A stretch of 59,646 nucleotides of DNA from an uncultured Gemmatimonadaceae bacterium (GTDB lineage Bacteria > Gemmatimonadota > Gemmatimonadetes > Gemmatimonadales > GWC2-71-9), in NCBI GenBank assembly GCA_964613905.1, contig CAZTIV010000008.1, positions 548-60,193 of the forward strand, in the 5' to 3' direction. Both the position numbers and the translations under genes were made by a program. Shown one piece after another: positions 13,355-18,650 of this stretch. Every line of letters starts with the position of its first letter. Position 1 is the first letter of the stretch. Under the pieces are notes generated by a model, which saw only the letters and a program-made list of their open reading frames with translations, ran no database searches and was not told the DNA's origin.

Positions 13355-13392
13355 AAGCCCCCCGGTGGCCGACGGGCCATCGGGGGGTTTTC
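13355..13392 (+). terminator. Rho-independent terminator after hsp20
   Basis: CCCCCCGGTGGCC-gacg-GGCCATCGGGGGG followed by TTTT. Confidence 0.8.
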
Positions 13393-13400
13393 TTGAGCCC

Positions 13401-15218
13401 GTGGGTATCACGCTGATTCGTCGCTACCCCATAGCCGCTGCCGCCACGCTCGGGATGGTGGGCGGTCTGTTGGCGCTTTTCCCGTTCCGCGTCCCCGCCG
13501 TTGCGCAGGCCATCTTCTTTGCTACGCTGGTTGGGGCGGGCGCGCCGCTGGTGATCCGGACCGCCGCCGGACTGATTCGCGGCCGGTTTGCCGCGGACGT
13601 TGTTGCCACCCTCGCGATCGTGACGGCGGTGATCCTGGGTGAGTACTTCGCCGGCACCGTCATAGTGCTGATGCAGTCCGGCGGCGAAGCCCTGGAGGAC
13701 TACGCGCTGAAACGCGCGTCCATGTCCGTGGAAGCCCTGGTGGCGCGCGCTCCAAAGCTGGCTCGAAGGCTGGTGGACGGTTCGATGGAGGAGATCGCGG
13801 CGACGGAAGTGCGCGTGGGGGACCTCCTCGTGGTGCGGCCGGGCGACCTGGTGCCGGTTGACGGCGAGGTAGTCAGCGGGCAATCGGCGGTCGATCAGTC
13901 GGCTTTGACCGGCGAGCCGATGCCGGTACATGCTGAACCGGGAACAGAACTCTACAGCGGCGGCGTCAACCTGGACGGAGCGCTCACCCTCAAGGCAATC
14001 CGCACGGCGGTGGAGAGCCAGTACCAGCAGATCGTGCAACTGGTGGAGCGGGCGCGACTGGAAAAGCCTCCCATGGAGCGGCTGGCGGATCGGGCCGCAG
14101 TATGGTTCACGCCCGCGACGCTCATCATGTGCGGCGTTGCCTGGCTCATCACATCGGATCCCACGGCCGTTCTGGCGGTGCTCGTGGTGGCCACGCCATG
14201 CCCGCTGATCCTGGCAACTCCCGTAGCTGTGATAGCGGGAATCAACCGCGCGGCGGATCGCGGCGTCATAATCAAGACGGGCTCGGCCATCGAGCAGGTG
14301 GGGCGGGCAGGAGTTGTGGTGTTTGACAAGACCGGTACGCTCACCGAAGGCCATCCCACGCTTTCCTCCGTGCGCACCTTTCACCGTCTTCCGGAGCACG
14401 AGGTACTGAAGCTGGCAGCTTCAGTAGAGCAGCTGACCTCTCATCACCTGGGTACCGCCGTGGTGGCCGCCGCCCGGGAGCGCAATGTACCGCTGGCCGA
14501 ACCCCTTGAGTTCGACGAGCACGCAGGCCTTGGGGTTCACGGCCGGGTGGACGGCAGATTCGTGATCGTGGGCACCGCCGGGCTGTTGCGGGAACACGGG
14601 GTTACCGTGGACGCGGCGCCCCTCGATGGTACGGTCGCCTGGGTTGGGGTGGACGGTGAGCTGGTGGGTGCCCTGGTATTCGCCGATCGGATCCGGCCCG
14701 AGGTTCCCGCGCTCATGCGGCAACTCCGTGACCTCGGTATCGGACACACGGTTATGCTTACCGGAGACCGCCGGGAAAACGCCGAGGCAGTTGCCGCGGA
14801 GGTGGGGATAGCCGAGGCGCACGCAGATCTGCTGCCCGGCGACAAGGTACGAGTGGTGGGATCGCTCAAACGCGAGCACGGCACGGTTGTGATGGTTGGC
14901 GACGGGATCAACGACGCGCCGGCACTGGCCGCGGCGGCCGTGGGCATAGCCATGGGGGCGCACGCTCCGGCCGCATCTTCCGCGGCAGCCGACATCGTGC
15001 TGGTCGTGGATGACGTCTCGCGTGTTGGTGATGCGATCACCGTGGGGCGGCGCACACGGCGGGTGGCGCTTCAGAGCATCGGGATCGGGATGGGAGTGAG
15101 CTTCGCGCTGATGTGGGTAGCGAGTTTCGGGCACATCACGCCGGCGCTCGGAGCGGTGCTGCAGGAGATTCTGGATGTGGGAGTGATCCTGAATGCACTG
15201 CGCGCCAGGCGGAACTGA
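13401..15218 (+). CDS. Heavy-metal P1B-type ATPase, P1B-5 subclass, without hemerythrin or N-terminal metal-binding domain
   Basis: TGEP, TPCP in the TM helix, DKTGTLT, GDGINDAPAL, QSIGIGMGVSFALM (Qx4Gx3Sx3M), QEILDVGVILN (QEx2Dx5N). Start GTG 13401 is uncertain. Confidence 0.9.
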   Translation: MGITLIRRYPIAAAATLGMVGGLLALFPFRVPAVAQAIFFATLVGAGAPLVIRTAAGLIRGRFAADVVATLAIVTAVILGEYFAGTVIVLMQSGGEALEDYALKRASMSVEALVARAPKLARRLVDGSMEEIAATEVRVGDLLVVRPGDLVPVDGEVVSGQSAVDQSALTGEPMPVHAEPGTELYSGGVNLDGALTLKAIRTAVESQYQQIVQLVERARLEKPPMERLADRAAVWFTPATLIMCGVAWLITSDPTAVLAVLVVATPCPLILATPVAVIAGINRAADRGVIIKTGSAIEQVGRAGVVVFDKTGTLTEGHPTLSSVRTFHRLPEHEVLKLAASVEQLTSHHLGTAVVAAARERNVPLAEPLEFDEHAGLGVHGRVDGRFVIVGTAGLLREHGVTVDAAPLDGTVAWVGVDGELVGALVFADRIRPEVPALMRQLRDLGIGHTVMLTGDRRENAEAVAAEVGIAEAHADLLPGDKVRVVGSLKREHGTVVMVGDGINDAPALAAAAVGIAMGAHAPAASSAAADIVLVVDDVSRVGDAITVGRRTRRVALQSIGIGMGVSFALMWVASFGHITPALGAVLQEILDVGVILNALRARRN

Positions 15219-15265
15219 CCGCCGCCGGTGCGGTCAGGCGTTGAGATGCGCGCTATATTCCTGAC

Positions 15266-15634
15266 ATGCGTTCAGTGCGCGGCGTCCTGCTCGCCGTGGT
15301 CGCGGGTACCGTCGCGTTCCTTCCTGTGACGGGTTGGGGCGCTCCGGCGCCAAGCCACTGCTCGGCCCACAACGAGCCCACGTCGCCGGTATCGGCGCAT
15401 GAGCGCGAGCACTCCCGGGAAACCGCCGAGTCCGGACACGACGACTGCCGCCACTGCCCACCTGATCGTTGTGACCTGCACACGGCATGCGTGGACCTGG
15501 TGCAGGTTGCGCCGCCGCCGCCCGGCGAACCCATGGTATGCGTAACGGGCACCCATTTCGGATACAGGGTGCCGGTCCCACTTAACTCCCATACCTTCAA
15601 GCCCCCCACGCCACCGCCTCTGCTCCAGTTGTAA
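15266..15634 (+). CDS. Small exported Cys/His-rich protein with C-terminal polyproline (DUF2946/CutF-like leader-arrest candidate)
   Basis: N-terminal hydrophobic signal, HEREH, HDDCRHCPPDRCDLHTAC, ends FKPPTPPPLLQL. TATATT (15254-15259) lies 6 nt before the ATG, consistent with a leaderless mRNA. Confidence 0.7.
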   Translation: MRSVRGVLLAVVAGTVAFLPVTGWGAPAPSHCSAHNEPTSPVSAHEREHSRETAESGHDDCRHCPPDRCDLHTACVDLVQVAPPPPGEPMVCVTGTHFGYRVPVPLNSHTFKPPTPPPLLQL

Positions 15635-15675
15635 ACCTGGGATCCGTCGTTTTCCTCAACCGGACAAGGAGCAGA
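15619..15675 (+). promoter_or_regulatory. Anti-Shine-Dalgarno / SD stem sequestering the RBS of the downstream gene
   Basis: TCTGCTCC (15619-15626) is the exact reverse complement of GGAGCAGA (15668-15675). Confidence 0.6.
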
Positions 15676-15679
15676 AGTG

Positions 15680-16483
15680 ATGGCATACTTGAGAAGCCCC
15701 GCTTGCGCGGCGTTGCTGGGTATATGCGTGGCGGGTGGTGTCGCGGCGCAGACAGATTATCGCAACCTCGATGCCGATCGGCCCGTGAGCACCGAGGACG
15801 CGCATCCGGTGGAACGGCACGCTTTCGAGTTCGTGTTGCCGTATCAGCTGGATCGAGAACCCGGTGGAGGCACCCGACACCTCGTCGTGCCCGAGCTCAC
15901 GTACGGGGTGTTACTGAACGGCCACGTGGGGGTCAAAGTGCCGGTAGCGGCGGTTCACTCGCCGGGGAGTAGGGAGTGGGGGGTTGCCGGTGTACGGGTG
16001 TTCGGTCTCTACAACTTCAACGTGGAGTCTGCCGCGCTGCCGGCGCTGGCGGTGCGTGCGGACGTCCAGCTCCCGGTGGGAAACCTTGGAACGGATGCAT
16101 TCAGGGCGTCGTTCAAGGCCATCGCTACCCGTGCCTGGGGCCGCAGTCGCATTCACCTGAACGGCGCATATGCCGTCGGTCGTGCCGGCGTGCCCGCGGC
16201 CGCCGAGCACCTGCCGGGTTGGTCGGTGTCCGGCGCTCTGGATCGGACGTTTTACCGGCGTAGCCTGCTGACGATCGGTGAGGTGCGGGTGCACCGTCTG
16301 GTTGAGGGCGCACCCATCGAAGCCACCGCGGCCGCAGGTGTGCGCTACCAATGGGGGCCGAGCACCGTGCTCGACGCTGGCGTCGCCCGGCGCCTGCGCG
16401 GGGATGTTGGTCCCGACTTCGCCGTCACGATCGGTGTCACGAGCGCTTTCGCTCTGCGCGCCTTCATGGGAGGTGCCCCATGA
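15680..16483 (+). CDS. Putative outer-membrane beta-barrel channel (MetA-pathway/transporter-like)
   Basis: Signal peptide VAA-QT, DADRPVSTEDA N-terminal motif, alternating hydrophobic beta strands, near-terminal GVTSAF. Confidence 0.65.
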   Translation: MAYLRSPACAALLGICVAGGVAAQTDYRNLDADRPVSTEDAHPVERHAFEFVLPYQLDREPGGGTRHLVVPELTYGVLLNGHVGVKVPVAAVHSPGSREWGVAGVRVFGLYNFNVESAALPALAVRADVQLPVGNLGTDAFRASFKAIATRAWGRSRIHLNGAYAVGRAGVPAAAEHLPGWSVSGALDRTFYRRSLLTIGEVRVHRLVEGAPIEATAAAGVRYQWGPSTVLDAGVARRLRGDVGPDFAVTIGVTSAFALRAFMGGAP

Positions 16484-17508
16484 CCCGCGGGTACCAAATA
16501 GTGGTCTTGCTGGGTGTGATGGTTGCCGGTCCGCTCCCGGCGCAGGAGCGTCGAAATGAGCAGTTCTACTACCCGGGCCGATTCAACTGGGAGTTCCTGC
16601 ACCGGTATCCGGAGGCGGCGCGCCTGTTCAACGCGTTCGATTACGGGCACGCCGTCCTGTACGAGGTATTGCTCACACGATCCGATTCAGCCCGCCAGAC
16701 TGCGGCACTCGAACGGGAGTACCACTACCTCACCACGGATCTCCTGCTCCGGCCGCCGCGTTTTGCCGTGGCGGAAGATGCGGTGGCACCGGCGTATGCC
16801 AGGCTTGCCTGGCGCGCGAAGATGATGTTTCACTGGGCACACGTCCTCCACCGGCAGATCTACGACGCATACGCCGATCCGCGGTTGTCCGACGCTGAAC
16901 GCCGTGATCTCGTGGAACGCCTCACCGACTACTATCTGAGCAACCGGCGCCTCGCGTTCACCGACGTGCCCAAGTCCATGGAACTGATGGACGAGGCCTA
17001 CTACAGTCAGGTATTCCGCCGTCGCCATCCCGAGTTCAACGGATTGATCTGGGCCTACCACTGGCTGCAGGTGGGATTGTACGAGCCTCTGGTCATGGAT
17101 ACTACGGCCGACGGGCGCAAGGCCGGCATCCAGGCCGCAGTGGCGCGGTTCTTCGACATGTTGCGGGAGCCGCCAACTCACTACCCCGTGGTGATGCCCA
17201 TGACGCCCGCCATCGCTCCGGAGTTCACCCGCCGGCATCCACGGGCGGCGGCCATCTTCGACAACCTGCACATGCTGCACGACATTATCTCCGACATCCT
17301 CGTGTCGGGGGCTGTGCCGCGTGACCGAAAACGGGCAGAGATCTATGCTGCTTTGGACGAGTTCCAGGATGGCACCCGGAATGCGATTACGGCTGACGAG
17401 TGGCTGCATATGGCGCATCACATGGGCGGCGTGGACGCCATGGGCGGGCCGGCCGTAGGCTTGTTGCGGAGGCCGGAATCGGTGGATGCCGGGGGCCACC
17501 GGCACTGA
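16480..17508 (+). CDS. Exported His-rich helical protein with internal duplication, function unknown
   Basis: ATGA overlap with the upstream gene. Signal peptide LPA-QE; motifs DYGHAVLYE, HWAHVLHRQIYD, AYHWLQVGLYE, DNLHMLHDIISD; HMAHHM tail. Confidence 0.8.
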   Translation: MTRGYQIVVLLGVMVAGPLPAQERRNEQFYYPGRFNWEFLHRYPEAARLFNAFDYGHAVLYEVLLTRSDSARQTAALEREYHYLTTDLLLRPPRFAVAEDAVAPAYARLAWRAKMMFHWAHVLHRQIYDAYADPRLSDAERRDLVERLTDYYLSNRRLAFTDVPKSMELMDEAYYSQVFRRRHPEFNGLIWAYHWLQVGLYEPLVMDTTADGRKAGIQAAVARFFDMLREPPTHYPVVMPMTPAIAPEFTRRHPRAAAIFDNLHMLHDIISDILVSGAVPRDRKRAEIYAALDEFQDGTRNAITADEWLHMAHHMGGVDAMGGPAVGLLRRPESVDAGGHRH

Positions 17509-17564
17509 AAAAGCCGGGGTGCGTGGCGCAGGGGTAAGTTTCGGGGAGGGAAGGAGAGGGACAG

Positions 17565-18650
17565 ATGAAATGGTCGTGGGTACTGGGGCGGGTCCAGGGC
17601 ATCAAGATCCAGGTGCACTGGACGTTCTCGATCCTTCTCGTATGGGTGGGGCTGATTCACGCTGCCCGCGGTGCGAGCACGGCGGACGTTGTGGCCGGCA
17701 TCATGCTCATACTCGCCGTCTTTGCGTGTGTCGTGCTGCACGAGTTGGGACACGCACTCACGGCCAAGCGGTTCGGAATCAACACTCGCGACATAACCCT
17801 CCTTCCCATTGGCGGAGTAGCACGGCTCGAGCGCATGCCCGACGAGCCGTATCAGGAGTTGATTGTTGCTGCCGCCGGACCGGCTGTGAACGTGGTGATT
17901 GCCGGGATATTAGCGCTCGCACTCCTGGCGGTGGATGGATTCCGGCCGATCGGTGAACTTGCGCTGGTAGGCGGCAACTTTGCGGTCAAGCTGATGTGGG
18001 TGAACGTGCTGCTGGTGGCGTTCAATCTTCTGCCGGCGTTCCCCATGGACGGCGGGCGTATCTTGCGGGCGTTGCTCGCGAGCCGGCTCGATTACGGCCG
18101 GGCCACACGAATAGCGGCAACGATAGGTCAGGGAATGGCGGTGCTTTTCGGCCTGGCGGGACTCTTCGGCAATCCGTTCCTCCTGCTCATTGCCATCTTC
18201 GTTTTCCTGGGGGCGCAGGCCGAGGCCGAGCAGGTTGGGGTACGGATGGCGTTGGAGGGGGTGCCGGTGGCGGACGCCATGATGACCAGGTTCGACGTGC
18301 TGGCCGCGACGAACACACTGCAGGATGCCATCGACGAACTTATTGCAGGATCACAGCAGGACTTTCCGGTGGTGGAAGATGGACGCGTGGTCGGGTTGCT
18401 GCTCCGTCAGGACCTCGTGAAGGCTATCAAGGCGGGTGGGCGCGAGCAGCGCGTGGGTGATGTCATGCGCAAGGACTGTGCTCTGGCCCGGGTGGACGAG
18501 CCCGTGTTCGAGGTGATAGCCCGGATGCGCAGCGCTCGTTGCCCCACTATTCCCGTCATGCAGGACGGTACGCTGGTGGGGCTCCTGACTCTTGAGAACG
18601 TGGGTGAGTTGATGATGGTCGAGCCCGGGAGCGGCAGGATCGAACGCTAG
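17565..18650 (+). CDS. Site-2 protease (M50) with C-terminal CBS pair (Rip3-like)
   Basis: HELGH, LLPIGG, AAAGPAVN, FNLLPAFPMDGGR, two CBS domains. Confidence 0.95.
   Translation: MKWSWVLGRVQGIKIQVHWTFSILLVWVGLIHAARGASTADVVAGIMLILAVFACVVLHELGHALTAKRFGINTRDITLLPIGGVARLERMPDEPYQELIVAAAGPAVNVVIAGILALALLAVDGFRPIGELALVGGNFAVKLMWVNVLLVAFNLLPAFPMDGGRILRALLASRLDYGRATRIAATIGQGMAVLFGLAGLFGNPFLLLIAIFVFLGAQAEAEQVGVRMALEGVPVADAMMTRFDVLAATNTLQDAIDELIAGSQQDFPVVEDGRVVGLLLRQDLVKAIKAGGREQRVGDVMRKDCALARVDEPVFEVIARMRSARCPTIPVMQDGTLVGLLTLENVGELMMVEPGSGRIER

Follow-up and report, generated by a model that had tools for sequence, protein, structure and literature searches.

How could a short open reading frame (ORF) that ends in a run of prolines, and that lies directly ahead of genes for an outer-membrane barrel and a His-rich protein, control those genes in response to metal? 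The question is raised by a locus in a metagenome-assembled genome (MAG) of the Gemmatimonadales, within a 59,646-nucleotide stretch of contig CAZTIV010000008.1 (positions 548 to 60,193 of the forward strand) that we call the window. An initial annotation had read the 122-aa ORF as an exported leader peptide on which ribosomes arrest, thereby exposing the barrel gene's Shine-Dalgarno (SD) sequence. Our comparative analysis of sequences supports this interpretation, and we conclude that the ORF is probably a regulatory leader of the CutF type. To our knowledge, the sensing of an extracytoplasmic metal by a nascent chain has been shown for two proteins only, CutF and CruR. The features on which the argument turns are the following.

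15254-15259, + strand: TATATT, a -10-like hexamer, with 6 nt between it and the leader ATG downstream
15266-15634, + strand: leader ORF, 122 aa, from ATG 15266 to TAA 15632-15634
15437-15490, + strand: codons for the putative metal-binding cluster H58-C75, HDDCRHCPPDRCDLHTAC, assigned from Cys conservation
15602-15619, + strand: PPTPPP codons, the proposed arrest site, with P117 proposed in the P-site and P118 in the A-site
15619-15626, + strand: anti-SD arm TCTGCTCC, from sequence and folding
15668-15675, + strand: SD arm GGAGCAGA, belonging to the barrel gene, from sequence and folding
15677/15680-16483, + strand: outer-membrane barrel with a FapF/COG4313-like fold, 267 aa from ATG 15680 (268 aa if from GTG 15677)
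16480-17508, + strand: p342, an all-alpha protein of 342 aa, predicted to be exported, from an AlphaFold2 (AF2) model and conservation

A leader family with a fixed spacing

The leader has a basic N-terminus and a hydrophobic 12-residue window (Kyte-Doolittle 2.62), both kept in its orthologues, and it is on this hydrophobicity that a signal peptide is predicted. Residues 58-69 read HDDCRHCPPDRC, with C75 after them, and residues 112-118 read KPPTPPP (nt 15599-15619), followed by LLQL and the stop. The ORF, its Cys/His cluster and its KPPTPPP end all lie where the initial annotation had placed them. To view this ORF among its relatives we used barrel-gene loci, of which 89 unique ones remained after six duplicate pairs had been dropped; the 80 with at least 450 nt of upstream flank were taken as evaluable. 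In 35 of these 80 a small ORF of the same architecture lies upstream of the barrel gene. Read from the N-terminus, it is first basic and then hydrophobic, goes on with HC, a His-rich region and CxHCPxxxC-x5-C, and has a variable linker before PPTPPP and a few last residues.

Overall identity to the window leader is only 17-28%. Across 33 orthologues P117 never varies, and H45, C61, C69, C75, P113, P116 and P118 reach a conservation of at least 90%. A hidden Markov model (HMM) made from 33 leaders, searched against 1.84 billion representative proteins, found 430 clusters at E <= 1e-3 and 154 at E <= 1e-10. Among 150 family representatives C64 never varies, C32, C61, H63, C69 and C75 show conservation of at least 90%, and P113 and P116-P118 likewise show such conservation or are invariant. 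The proline motif reads PPTPPPQ in 76 of the best 150 members and PPTRPP in a minority. PPP falls within the last 25 residues in 138 of these members, and in 112 of the 138 it is followed by exactly four residues. The median length of the family, as called in the database, is 134 aa.

The distance between the cluster and the prolines is almost constant. The third Pro follows the first Cys of the CxxC at a distance of 57-58 residues (10th-90th percentile, best 150 family members), and in the window the cluster C61-C75 sits 43-57 residues behind P118. The linker from the Cys cluster to PPP is fixed in length and free in sequence (mean column identity 26%), which suggests a spacer rather than a folded domain.

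The leader is single-copy in the window's genome, which also encodes EF-P (201.8 bits, above the cut-off). Leader matches at E <= 1e-5 were found in 56 of 301 sampled genomes of the phylum and in 47 of 124 genomes of the window's own family. These tallies include the unpublished genomes G098 and G210; together with a third, G014, they enter genome tallies only, and no claim depends solely on them. A word-based protein search with the window leader returned 87 candidates, none at E <= 0.001, and was superseded by the HMM search. The window leader ORF is itself missing from a collection of 5.8 billion proteins that holds both the barrel and p342, indicating that gene callers can miss such leaders; in this genome the gene is apparently uncalled, perhaps owing to its missing SD. 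Two barrel loci, L022 and L035, both counted below as having neither leader nor two-component system, carry decayed leaders that retain a PPTPPP or PPPQ tail only, without the Cys cluster.

A helix between the leader end and the barrel Shine-Dalgarno

In the window 42-45 nt separate the leader from the barrel gene; elsewhere the gap ranges over 22-152 nt, mostly 41-87 nt. The arm TCTGCTCC takes in the final base of the Pro118 codon, the codons of Leu119 and Leu120 and the opening base of Gln121, and it is the exact reverse complement of GGAGCAGA, whose GGAG lies 8 nt before the barrel ATG 15680. The perfect pairing of 15619-15626 with 15668-15675 that the initial annotation had pointed out is therefore correct. 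RNAfold of 15590-15700 placed the 8-bp helix in the minimum free energy structure, at -31.9 kcal/mol (z = -2.35; 5 of 200 shuffled sequences folded equally well), and the probability that the SD is paired with the leader tail is 0.93.

Pairing of the SD with the 3' end of the leader recurs in the other loci. Its probability is at least 0.5 in 28 of the 32 leader loci having a recognisable SD, the exceptions being L010 (0.49), L030 (0.08), L038 (0.47) and L081 (0.01); L014 and L016 have no SD-like core and were not folded. The partner of the SD is usually the last 3-4 sense codons with the stop (5' arm -12 to +6 relative to the stop). The two arms change together, as in CCUAG/CUAGG, CUCGUAG/CUACGAG and CCUCUGA/(C)AGAGG; L091 has UCA as the partner of a UGA stop. 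In an alignment-free test of 32 loci the cognate arms averaged -17.7 kcal/mol, compared with -12.6 kcal/mol for non-cognate and -11.4 kcal/mol for 5'-shuffled arms. None of 10,000 permutations reached the cognate mean, and the cognate arm ranked first in 11 of the 32 loci. The stem thus recurs in most loci, and its arms co-vary both in this permutation test and in a subset of 14 aligned sequences that is weighed below.

Some further features of this region stand apart. In L038 (2082-2142) the leader frame reads on beyond the position of the usual stop, as a 1-nt indel would make it do, with the CCUAG/CUAGG helix intact. In many loci the loop between the anti-SD and SD arms holds a strong GC-rich hairpin (L058:2033-2125, L081:1340-1433, L077:2015-2108), which might stabilise the closed state or serve as a protein-binding site. 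Attenuation by an intrinsic terminator was rejected, as there is no U-run past the helix, and Rho-dependent control was rejected for the shortness of the intergenic region.

An apparently leaderless start

No SD precedes the leader ATG in the window, and the -10-like hexamer 6 nt before this ATG implies a leaderless transcript. For the comparison with other loci, leader start codons were assigned from where the hydrophobic segment lies, without regard to what precedes them. Of 32 orthologous loci, 25 have a TANNNT hexamer at a distance of 4-11 nt ahead of the ATG, compared with 1.6% at random positions, and 1 has an SD-like core there. The leader mRNA therefore looks leaderless, in agreement with the initial annotation, which had called the ORF apparently leaderless.

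In six loci a G-tract motif (ATA-G5-A-G5-TATACT) overlaps the -10-like hexamer (L074, at 1551-1580, and L051, L052, L071, L079 and L082), and in L014 a palindromic ATACCC-N-GGGGGTAT-like site lies upstream of the leader. We take both to resemble operators of the CsoR/RcnR type, and if they are such operators they would add a layer of transcriptional control.

A model for control by the nascent chain

We propose that the leader would be translated from a leaderless mRNA and exported co-translationally. With a ribosome at PPTPPP, the Cys/His cluster would be 43-57 residues behind the peptidyl-transferase centre. The exit tunnel and the Sec channel together are of about this length, so that the cluster would just have entered the periplasm. 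Copper on the cluster would delay release from the polyproline arrest, and the arrested ribosome would cover or unwind the anti-SD immediately 3' of the Pro codons. The barrel SD would be freed, and the barrel would be made together with p342, whose gene is joined to the barrel gene by an ATGA overlap (translational coupling). Without metal, translation would run through, the helix would re-form and expression of the operon would stay low.

Counted from the P-site codon 15614 (P117), the window's anti-SD covers +5 to +12 nt. Given the established footprint of the ribosome and the place of its helicase, this is inside the mRNA channel of a ribosome that has arrested on PPP. The 5' arm of most orthologues starts 1-5 nt past the third Pro codon and extends through the stop.

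Exchange with a two-component system and the likely metal

Among the 89 unique loci, the p342 gene follows the barrel gene in every one that has sufficient flank. What precedes the pair varies. Among the 80 evaluable loci, 35 have the leader and 30 lack it but have, 140-370 nt upstream, a response regulator and a kinase that run divergently; 15 have neither and none has both. The best NCBIfam models for the two-component genes are the heavy-metal models TIGR01387 and TIGR01386, with scores below the curated cut-offs (226 vs 279 and 239 vs 293). The barrel and p342 beside a divergent response regulator and kinase resemble CusRS/CopRS copper operons; the window differs from these in carrying the leader in place of the two-component system. 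That one is swapped for the other before the same operon argues for a regulatory role of the leader. On a FastTree phylogeny of p342, rooted at the midpoint and with the direction of change unclaimed, the well-supported branches force at least five changes of the leader label and at least six of the two-component label.

The leader family also stands before other genes. Among 27 leader-centred public loci, the barrel and p342 follow in 20, and in the other seven the leader precedes a multicopper oxidase (L146), a CusC-type outer-membrane efflux protein (L140) or, in five loci, an unannotated His/Met-rich protein of about 480 aa. In 10 of the 35 leader loci p342 is followed on the same strand by an ATPase that has a CPH motif and is rich in His at its N-terminus; the one that was scanned, from L045, matches the copper-ATPase model TIGR01511 (583 bits vs a cut-off of 397). 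As these neighbours are of copper-detoxification types, copper is favoured as the signal and 'on' as the response. The initial annotation had leaned towards metal uptake or storage, but the oxidase, the efflux protein, the CopB-type ATPases and the CusRS-like systems favour copper detoxification or efflux over this reading.

In the window itself the operon is flanked by two further genes.

13365-15218, + strand: P1B-type heavy-metal ATPase (TIGR01525, 533 bits, above the cut-off), ending 47 nt before the leader
17565-18650, + strand: M50/CBS protease, downstream of p342

Weighing the alternatives

Several results weigh against a CutF-type leader. The fold of the window alone only modestly beats chance (z = -2.35) and is suggestive, not compelling; the helix is convincing because the comparative data support it. 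RNAalifold found no consensus structure across all 31 leader-end-to-start regions, since MAFFT sets subgroups one column out of register. The covariation score of 0.217 (shuffles 0.077, 0 of 500; slid controls <=0.044) comes from 14 of the 31 sequences, picked after viewing the alignment because MAFFT was in register there, a choice that leans towards structure. In this subset 85.7% of the cells of seven pairs are paired, and three of the seven pairs change on both sides. The mean 'SD paired' value is 0.83 where the leader is present, 0.64 where the two-component system stands in its place and 0.72 where both are missing, and in GC-rich DNA this statistic is a weak discriminator. Membership in DUF2946 (PF11162), the family to which the initial annotation had looked, did not hold by score for the window leader, which aligns over nearly its full length at 16.7 bits (E 0.013), below the gathering cut-off of 23.7 bits. 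The identity of the metal in this genome is made less certain by the upstream ATPase, which is of the PCP type and not of the copper CPH type: it has a TPCP transmembrane motif, and an HMA domain is absent from its Pfam hits. We take the PCP-type motif to mark the rarely studied P1B-5 class. PMC4932525 names PCP as one of the signature motifs and assigns Ni/Fe substrates to the one characterised P1B-5 enzyme.

The position of the 5' arm bears most directly on the mechanism. Where the arm includes the stop, as it does in most loci, a ribosome arrested on PPP would open its first half only, whereas a terminating ribosome would open all of it, and this makes plain translational coupling the main rival. 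On this account the leader would be a periplasmic metallochaperone, the helix would tie translation of the barrel to completion of the leader, and PPTPPP would be structural or a non-sensory pause. The leader is conserved and Cys/His-rich, as small metal-binding proteins are. We nevertheless consider coupling unlikely. The linker is conserved in length only, with PPP fixed relative to both the stop and the Cys cluster; sister loci swap the leader for a two-component regulator and not for another chaperone; the leader family also precedes unrelated copper genes; and CutF, which has the same architecture, is regulatory according to the main text of PMC9973294.

A response of the opposite sign, as in CruR, seems to us somewhat less probable again. 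Arrest would then be constitutive, metal would relieve it and shut the operon off, and the barrel and p342 would serve copper uptake. CruR is an exported upstream ORF (uORF) with a Cys motif, and its arrest is relieved by copper (PMC9426467); the barrel, for its part, could equally import. Against this stand the short intergenic region of the present loci, compared with the generally long one of CruR homologues, and the use of Rho-dependent termination by CruR, both as described in PMC9426467. The leader also lacks RAPP, DUF2946 proteins of the SRAPP type form a separate family that is not found beside the barrel, and the associated genes are of the detoxification types listed above. It is highly improbable that ORF and helix arose by chance in GC-rich DNA. 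GC-rich genomes contain many long spurious ORFs, and the word-based search missed even the window's own ORF, yet Cys and Pro columns are conserved in 33 loci at the low overall identity given above, the HMM family reaches 154 representative clusters at E <= 1e-10, and the arms of the helix co-vary. A chance ORF was rejected on these grounds.

Relation to CutF, CruR and other arrest peptides

The CutF-type leader that we favour can be compared with CutF of Rhodobacter capsulatus (cutFOG), as described in PMC9973294 and in preprint 10.1101/2025.02.05.636593. Both are small peptides exported through Sec, by prediction in the case of our leader, and both have a Cys motif, a C-terminal PPP motif, a stem-loop that shields the SD of the downstream gene and a short intergenic region; the leader relative L146 precedes a multicopper oxidase, as CutF does. 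On the rule-based definition of CutF-like proteins in PMC9973294, the window leader agrees in three of four points, namely a length of 122 aa (<150 aa), PPTPPP at residues 113-118 of 122 and an intergenic region of 42-45 nt, with the fourth, the signal peptide, judged by hydrophobicity only. The differences from CutF as it is presented in these sources lie in the Cys motif (CxHCPxxxC-x5-C in place of CxxxC), the leaderless mRNA, the DUF2946 score below threshold, the phylum Gemmatimonadota, an anti-SD within the leader's own last codons and stop, and the target, a barrel and a protein without known fold in place of CutO.

CruR (Bp2923) of Bordetella pertussis, as described in PMC9426467, shares with the leader an exported uORF (export being predicted here), a CxxC, a C-terminal Pro motif and a metal-related operon. 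The RAPP motif, the long intergenic region, Rho-dependent termination and a TonB-dependent transporter turned off by copper, which that source gives for CruR, were not seen for the leader; RAPP is not present in the tail of the window leader (KPPTPPPLLQL). SecM-secA and similar arrest peptides, as summarised in preprint 10.1101/2025.02.05.636593, likewise use a C-terminal arrest in an exported nascent chain to melt a helix that hides an SD. According to the same source, peptides of the SecM type monitor the export machinery, whereas the leader carries a putative metal-binding cluster at a fixed distance from its arrest site.

DUF2946 matches are rare throughout the leader family. They were found in 3 of 33 orthologues at E <= 1 (best E 0.013) and in 3 of 150 representatives at E <= 0.01, and a six-frame DUF2946 search of the window's genome gave no match at E <= 0.1. 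Aligned by hhalign to 16 DUF2946 hits from the same phylum (8 above the cut-off, the others at 21.6-23.1 bits), the leader family reached a probability of 44.6% over 13 columns around the CxxC only. Canonical DUF2946 proteins above the cut-off occur in 9 of 301 genomes of the phylum, have CxxC and SRAPP, and do not lie beside the barrel; by sequence they are a family separate from the leader. The C-terminal SRAPP of these canonical Gemmatimonadota proteins (L101-L121) is strongly conserved and CruR-like.

CutF-like leaders ahead of many kinds of metal genes are already published, as the main text of PMC9973294 shows, and the principle is known. The view in the initial annotation that the targets here are unlike those of the known cases stands for the barrel and p342. 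What is new is the leader family, its near-invariant spacing, the leaderless start, the placing of the anti-SD within the end of the leader itself, the interchange between leader and two-component system and a target composed of a barrel and a His/Met protein of new fold, probably forming one complex. Full-text searches of the literature on DUF2946, CutF, CruR and copper handling in Gemmatimonadota turned up no description of the leader/barrel/p342 system. 'Gemmatimon' is absent from the main text of PMC9973294, whose supplementary lists may already hold family members.

The barrel and its partner p342

The AF2 model of the barrel has a predicted local distance difference test (pLDDT) score of 86.6 and 15 strand segments by DSSP. 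Foldseek matched it to FapF (5o68, E 3e-10, template modelling (TM) score 0.64-0.66) and to the COG4313 channel 4rl8 (E 4.5e-8). From the model, the protein appears to be a 12-strand outer-membrane barrel of the FapF/COG4313 kind, which agrees with the outer-membrane channel expected by the initial annotation. The likeness to 4rl8 and to the FapF structures 5o65, 5o67 and 5o68 (TM 0.6-0.66) is at the level of the fold only: sequence identity is only 12-14%, and the present barrel differs in its conserved N-terminal QxDYRNLDxDRP...EDAYP segment and in having an obligatory partner gene, that of p342. No Pfam family matched the window barrel at E <= 1, nor did PF13557, which covers the MetA-pathway/COG4313 barrels; among the matches listed, PF13557 is precomputed on 4 of 120 barrel relatives.

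The model of p342 is confident and all helical (pLDDT 88.6, predicted TM score 0.85). Against the Protein Data Bank it found no fold match (best Foldseek E 0.19, TM 0.17) and no profile match (best hmmsearch E 0.22), it has no family in Pfam or NCBIfam, and the ESM Atlas returned unnamed Gemmatimonadota clusters only. Its relatives number at least 3,329, every one of them 'hypothetical'. A six-frame search found p342 in 17 of 61 related genomes, a tally that includes the unpublished G014, and a scan of species-representative genomes gave 384 stretches, of which the best 80 are all from Gemmatimonadales/Gemmatimonadota MAGs. Some relatives of 460-500 aa (P0176, P0214, P0220, P0226, P0235, P0239 and P0242) contain SnoaL-like/DUF4440 domains (PF14534, PF13474).

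The two halves of p342 are homologous, pointing to an internal duplication (hhalign 94.4%, E 9e-8). Their alignment pairs H57 with H194, H121 with H264 and H124 with H267; all six His are invariant in 89 sequences, as are M167, M170, M227, M239 and M311. The periplasmic metal-binding protein of the initial annotation is borne out in so far as p342 is rich in His and Met, with invariant His; that it binds metal and is exported can be put forward only as predictions.

A model of the barrel and p342 together gave an ipSAE of 0.87, compared with 0.00 for the best control, with a pLDDT of 91 for the partner, and three runs share at least 95% of contacts. In the calibration of the tool, 58 of 80 solved complexes and 2 of 110 mismatched pairs came up to this mark; the counts apply only roughly here, since the alignments were our own. 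On the barrel, the contacts fall on both termini and on regularly spaced turns. The termini of outer-membrane barrels are periplasmic, and we read contact with both of them as placing p342 on the periplasmic face. The complex model supports binding of p342 to this face, without demonstrating it. The two proteins are probably parts of one complex, in which p342, a pseudo-dimeric His/Met-rich protein, would cap the outer-membrane barrel from the periplasm and handle periplasmic copper in efflux or detoxification.

Implications

A wider proposal can be made tentatively. The barrel and p342 may constitute an unrecognised two-part outer-membrane copper machine, a 12-strand channel capped by a pseudo-dimeric protein of new fold with a six-His (possibly dinuclear) and Met-rich metal site. 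Such a machine would occur widely in Gemmatimonadota, with a two-component system and a nascent-chain sensor as interchangeable drivers, and the sensor's invariant spacer of 57-58 residues would act as a ruler that spans the ribosome tunnel and SecYEG. The ruler idea can be tested directly through spacer length, and the leader family offers an unusually clean natural test case, with its near-invariant distance from sensor to arrest site, four fixed codons from arrest to stop, a built-in anti-SD and a leaderless start. The putatively regulated genes are large, wholly unannotated families, and p342 has a confident model without a match among solved folds. The pair is probably an undescribed route of periplasmic copper handling in an abundant soil phylum.

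Other observations at the loci

Consensus scans of 15000-17800 in the window found no sigma-70 promoter and no intrinsic terminator. In L025 a same-strand CPH-type ATPase lies 97 nt upstream of the barrel, without a leader or a two-component system, as a third arrangement. The His/Met-rich proteins that follow five leader-family members (L126:1927-3375, L130:1953-3389, L134:8-1450 on the - strand, L135:1974-3386 and L151:39-1445 on the - strand) are secreted and 470-480 aa long, with the His/Met-rich region at the N-terminus and no Pfam family, and they represent another candidate copper protein.

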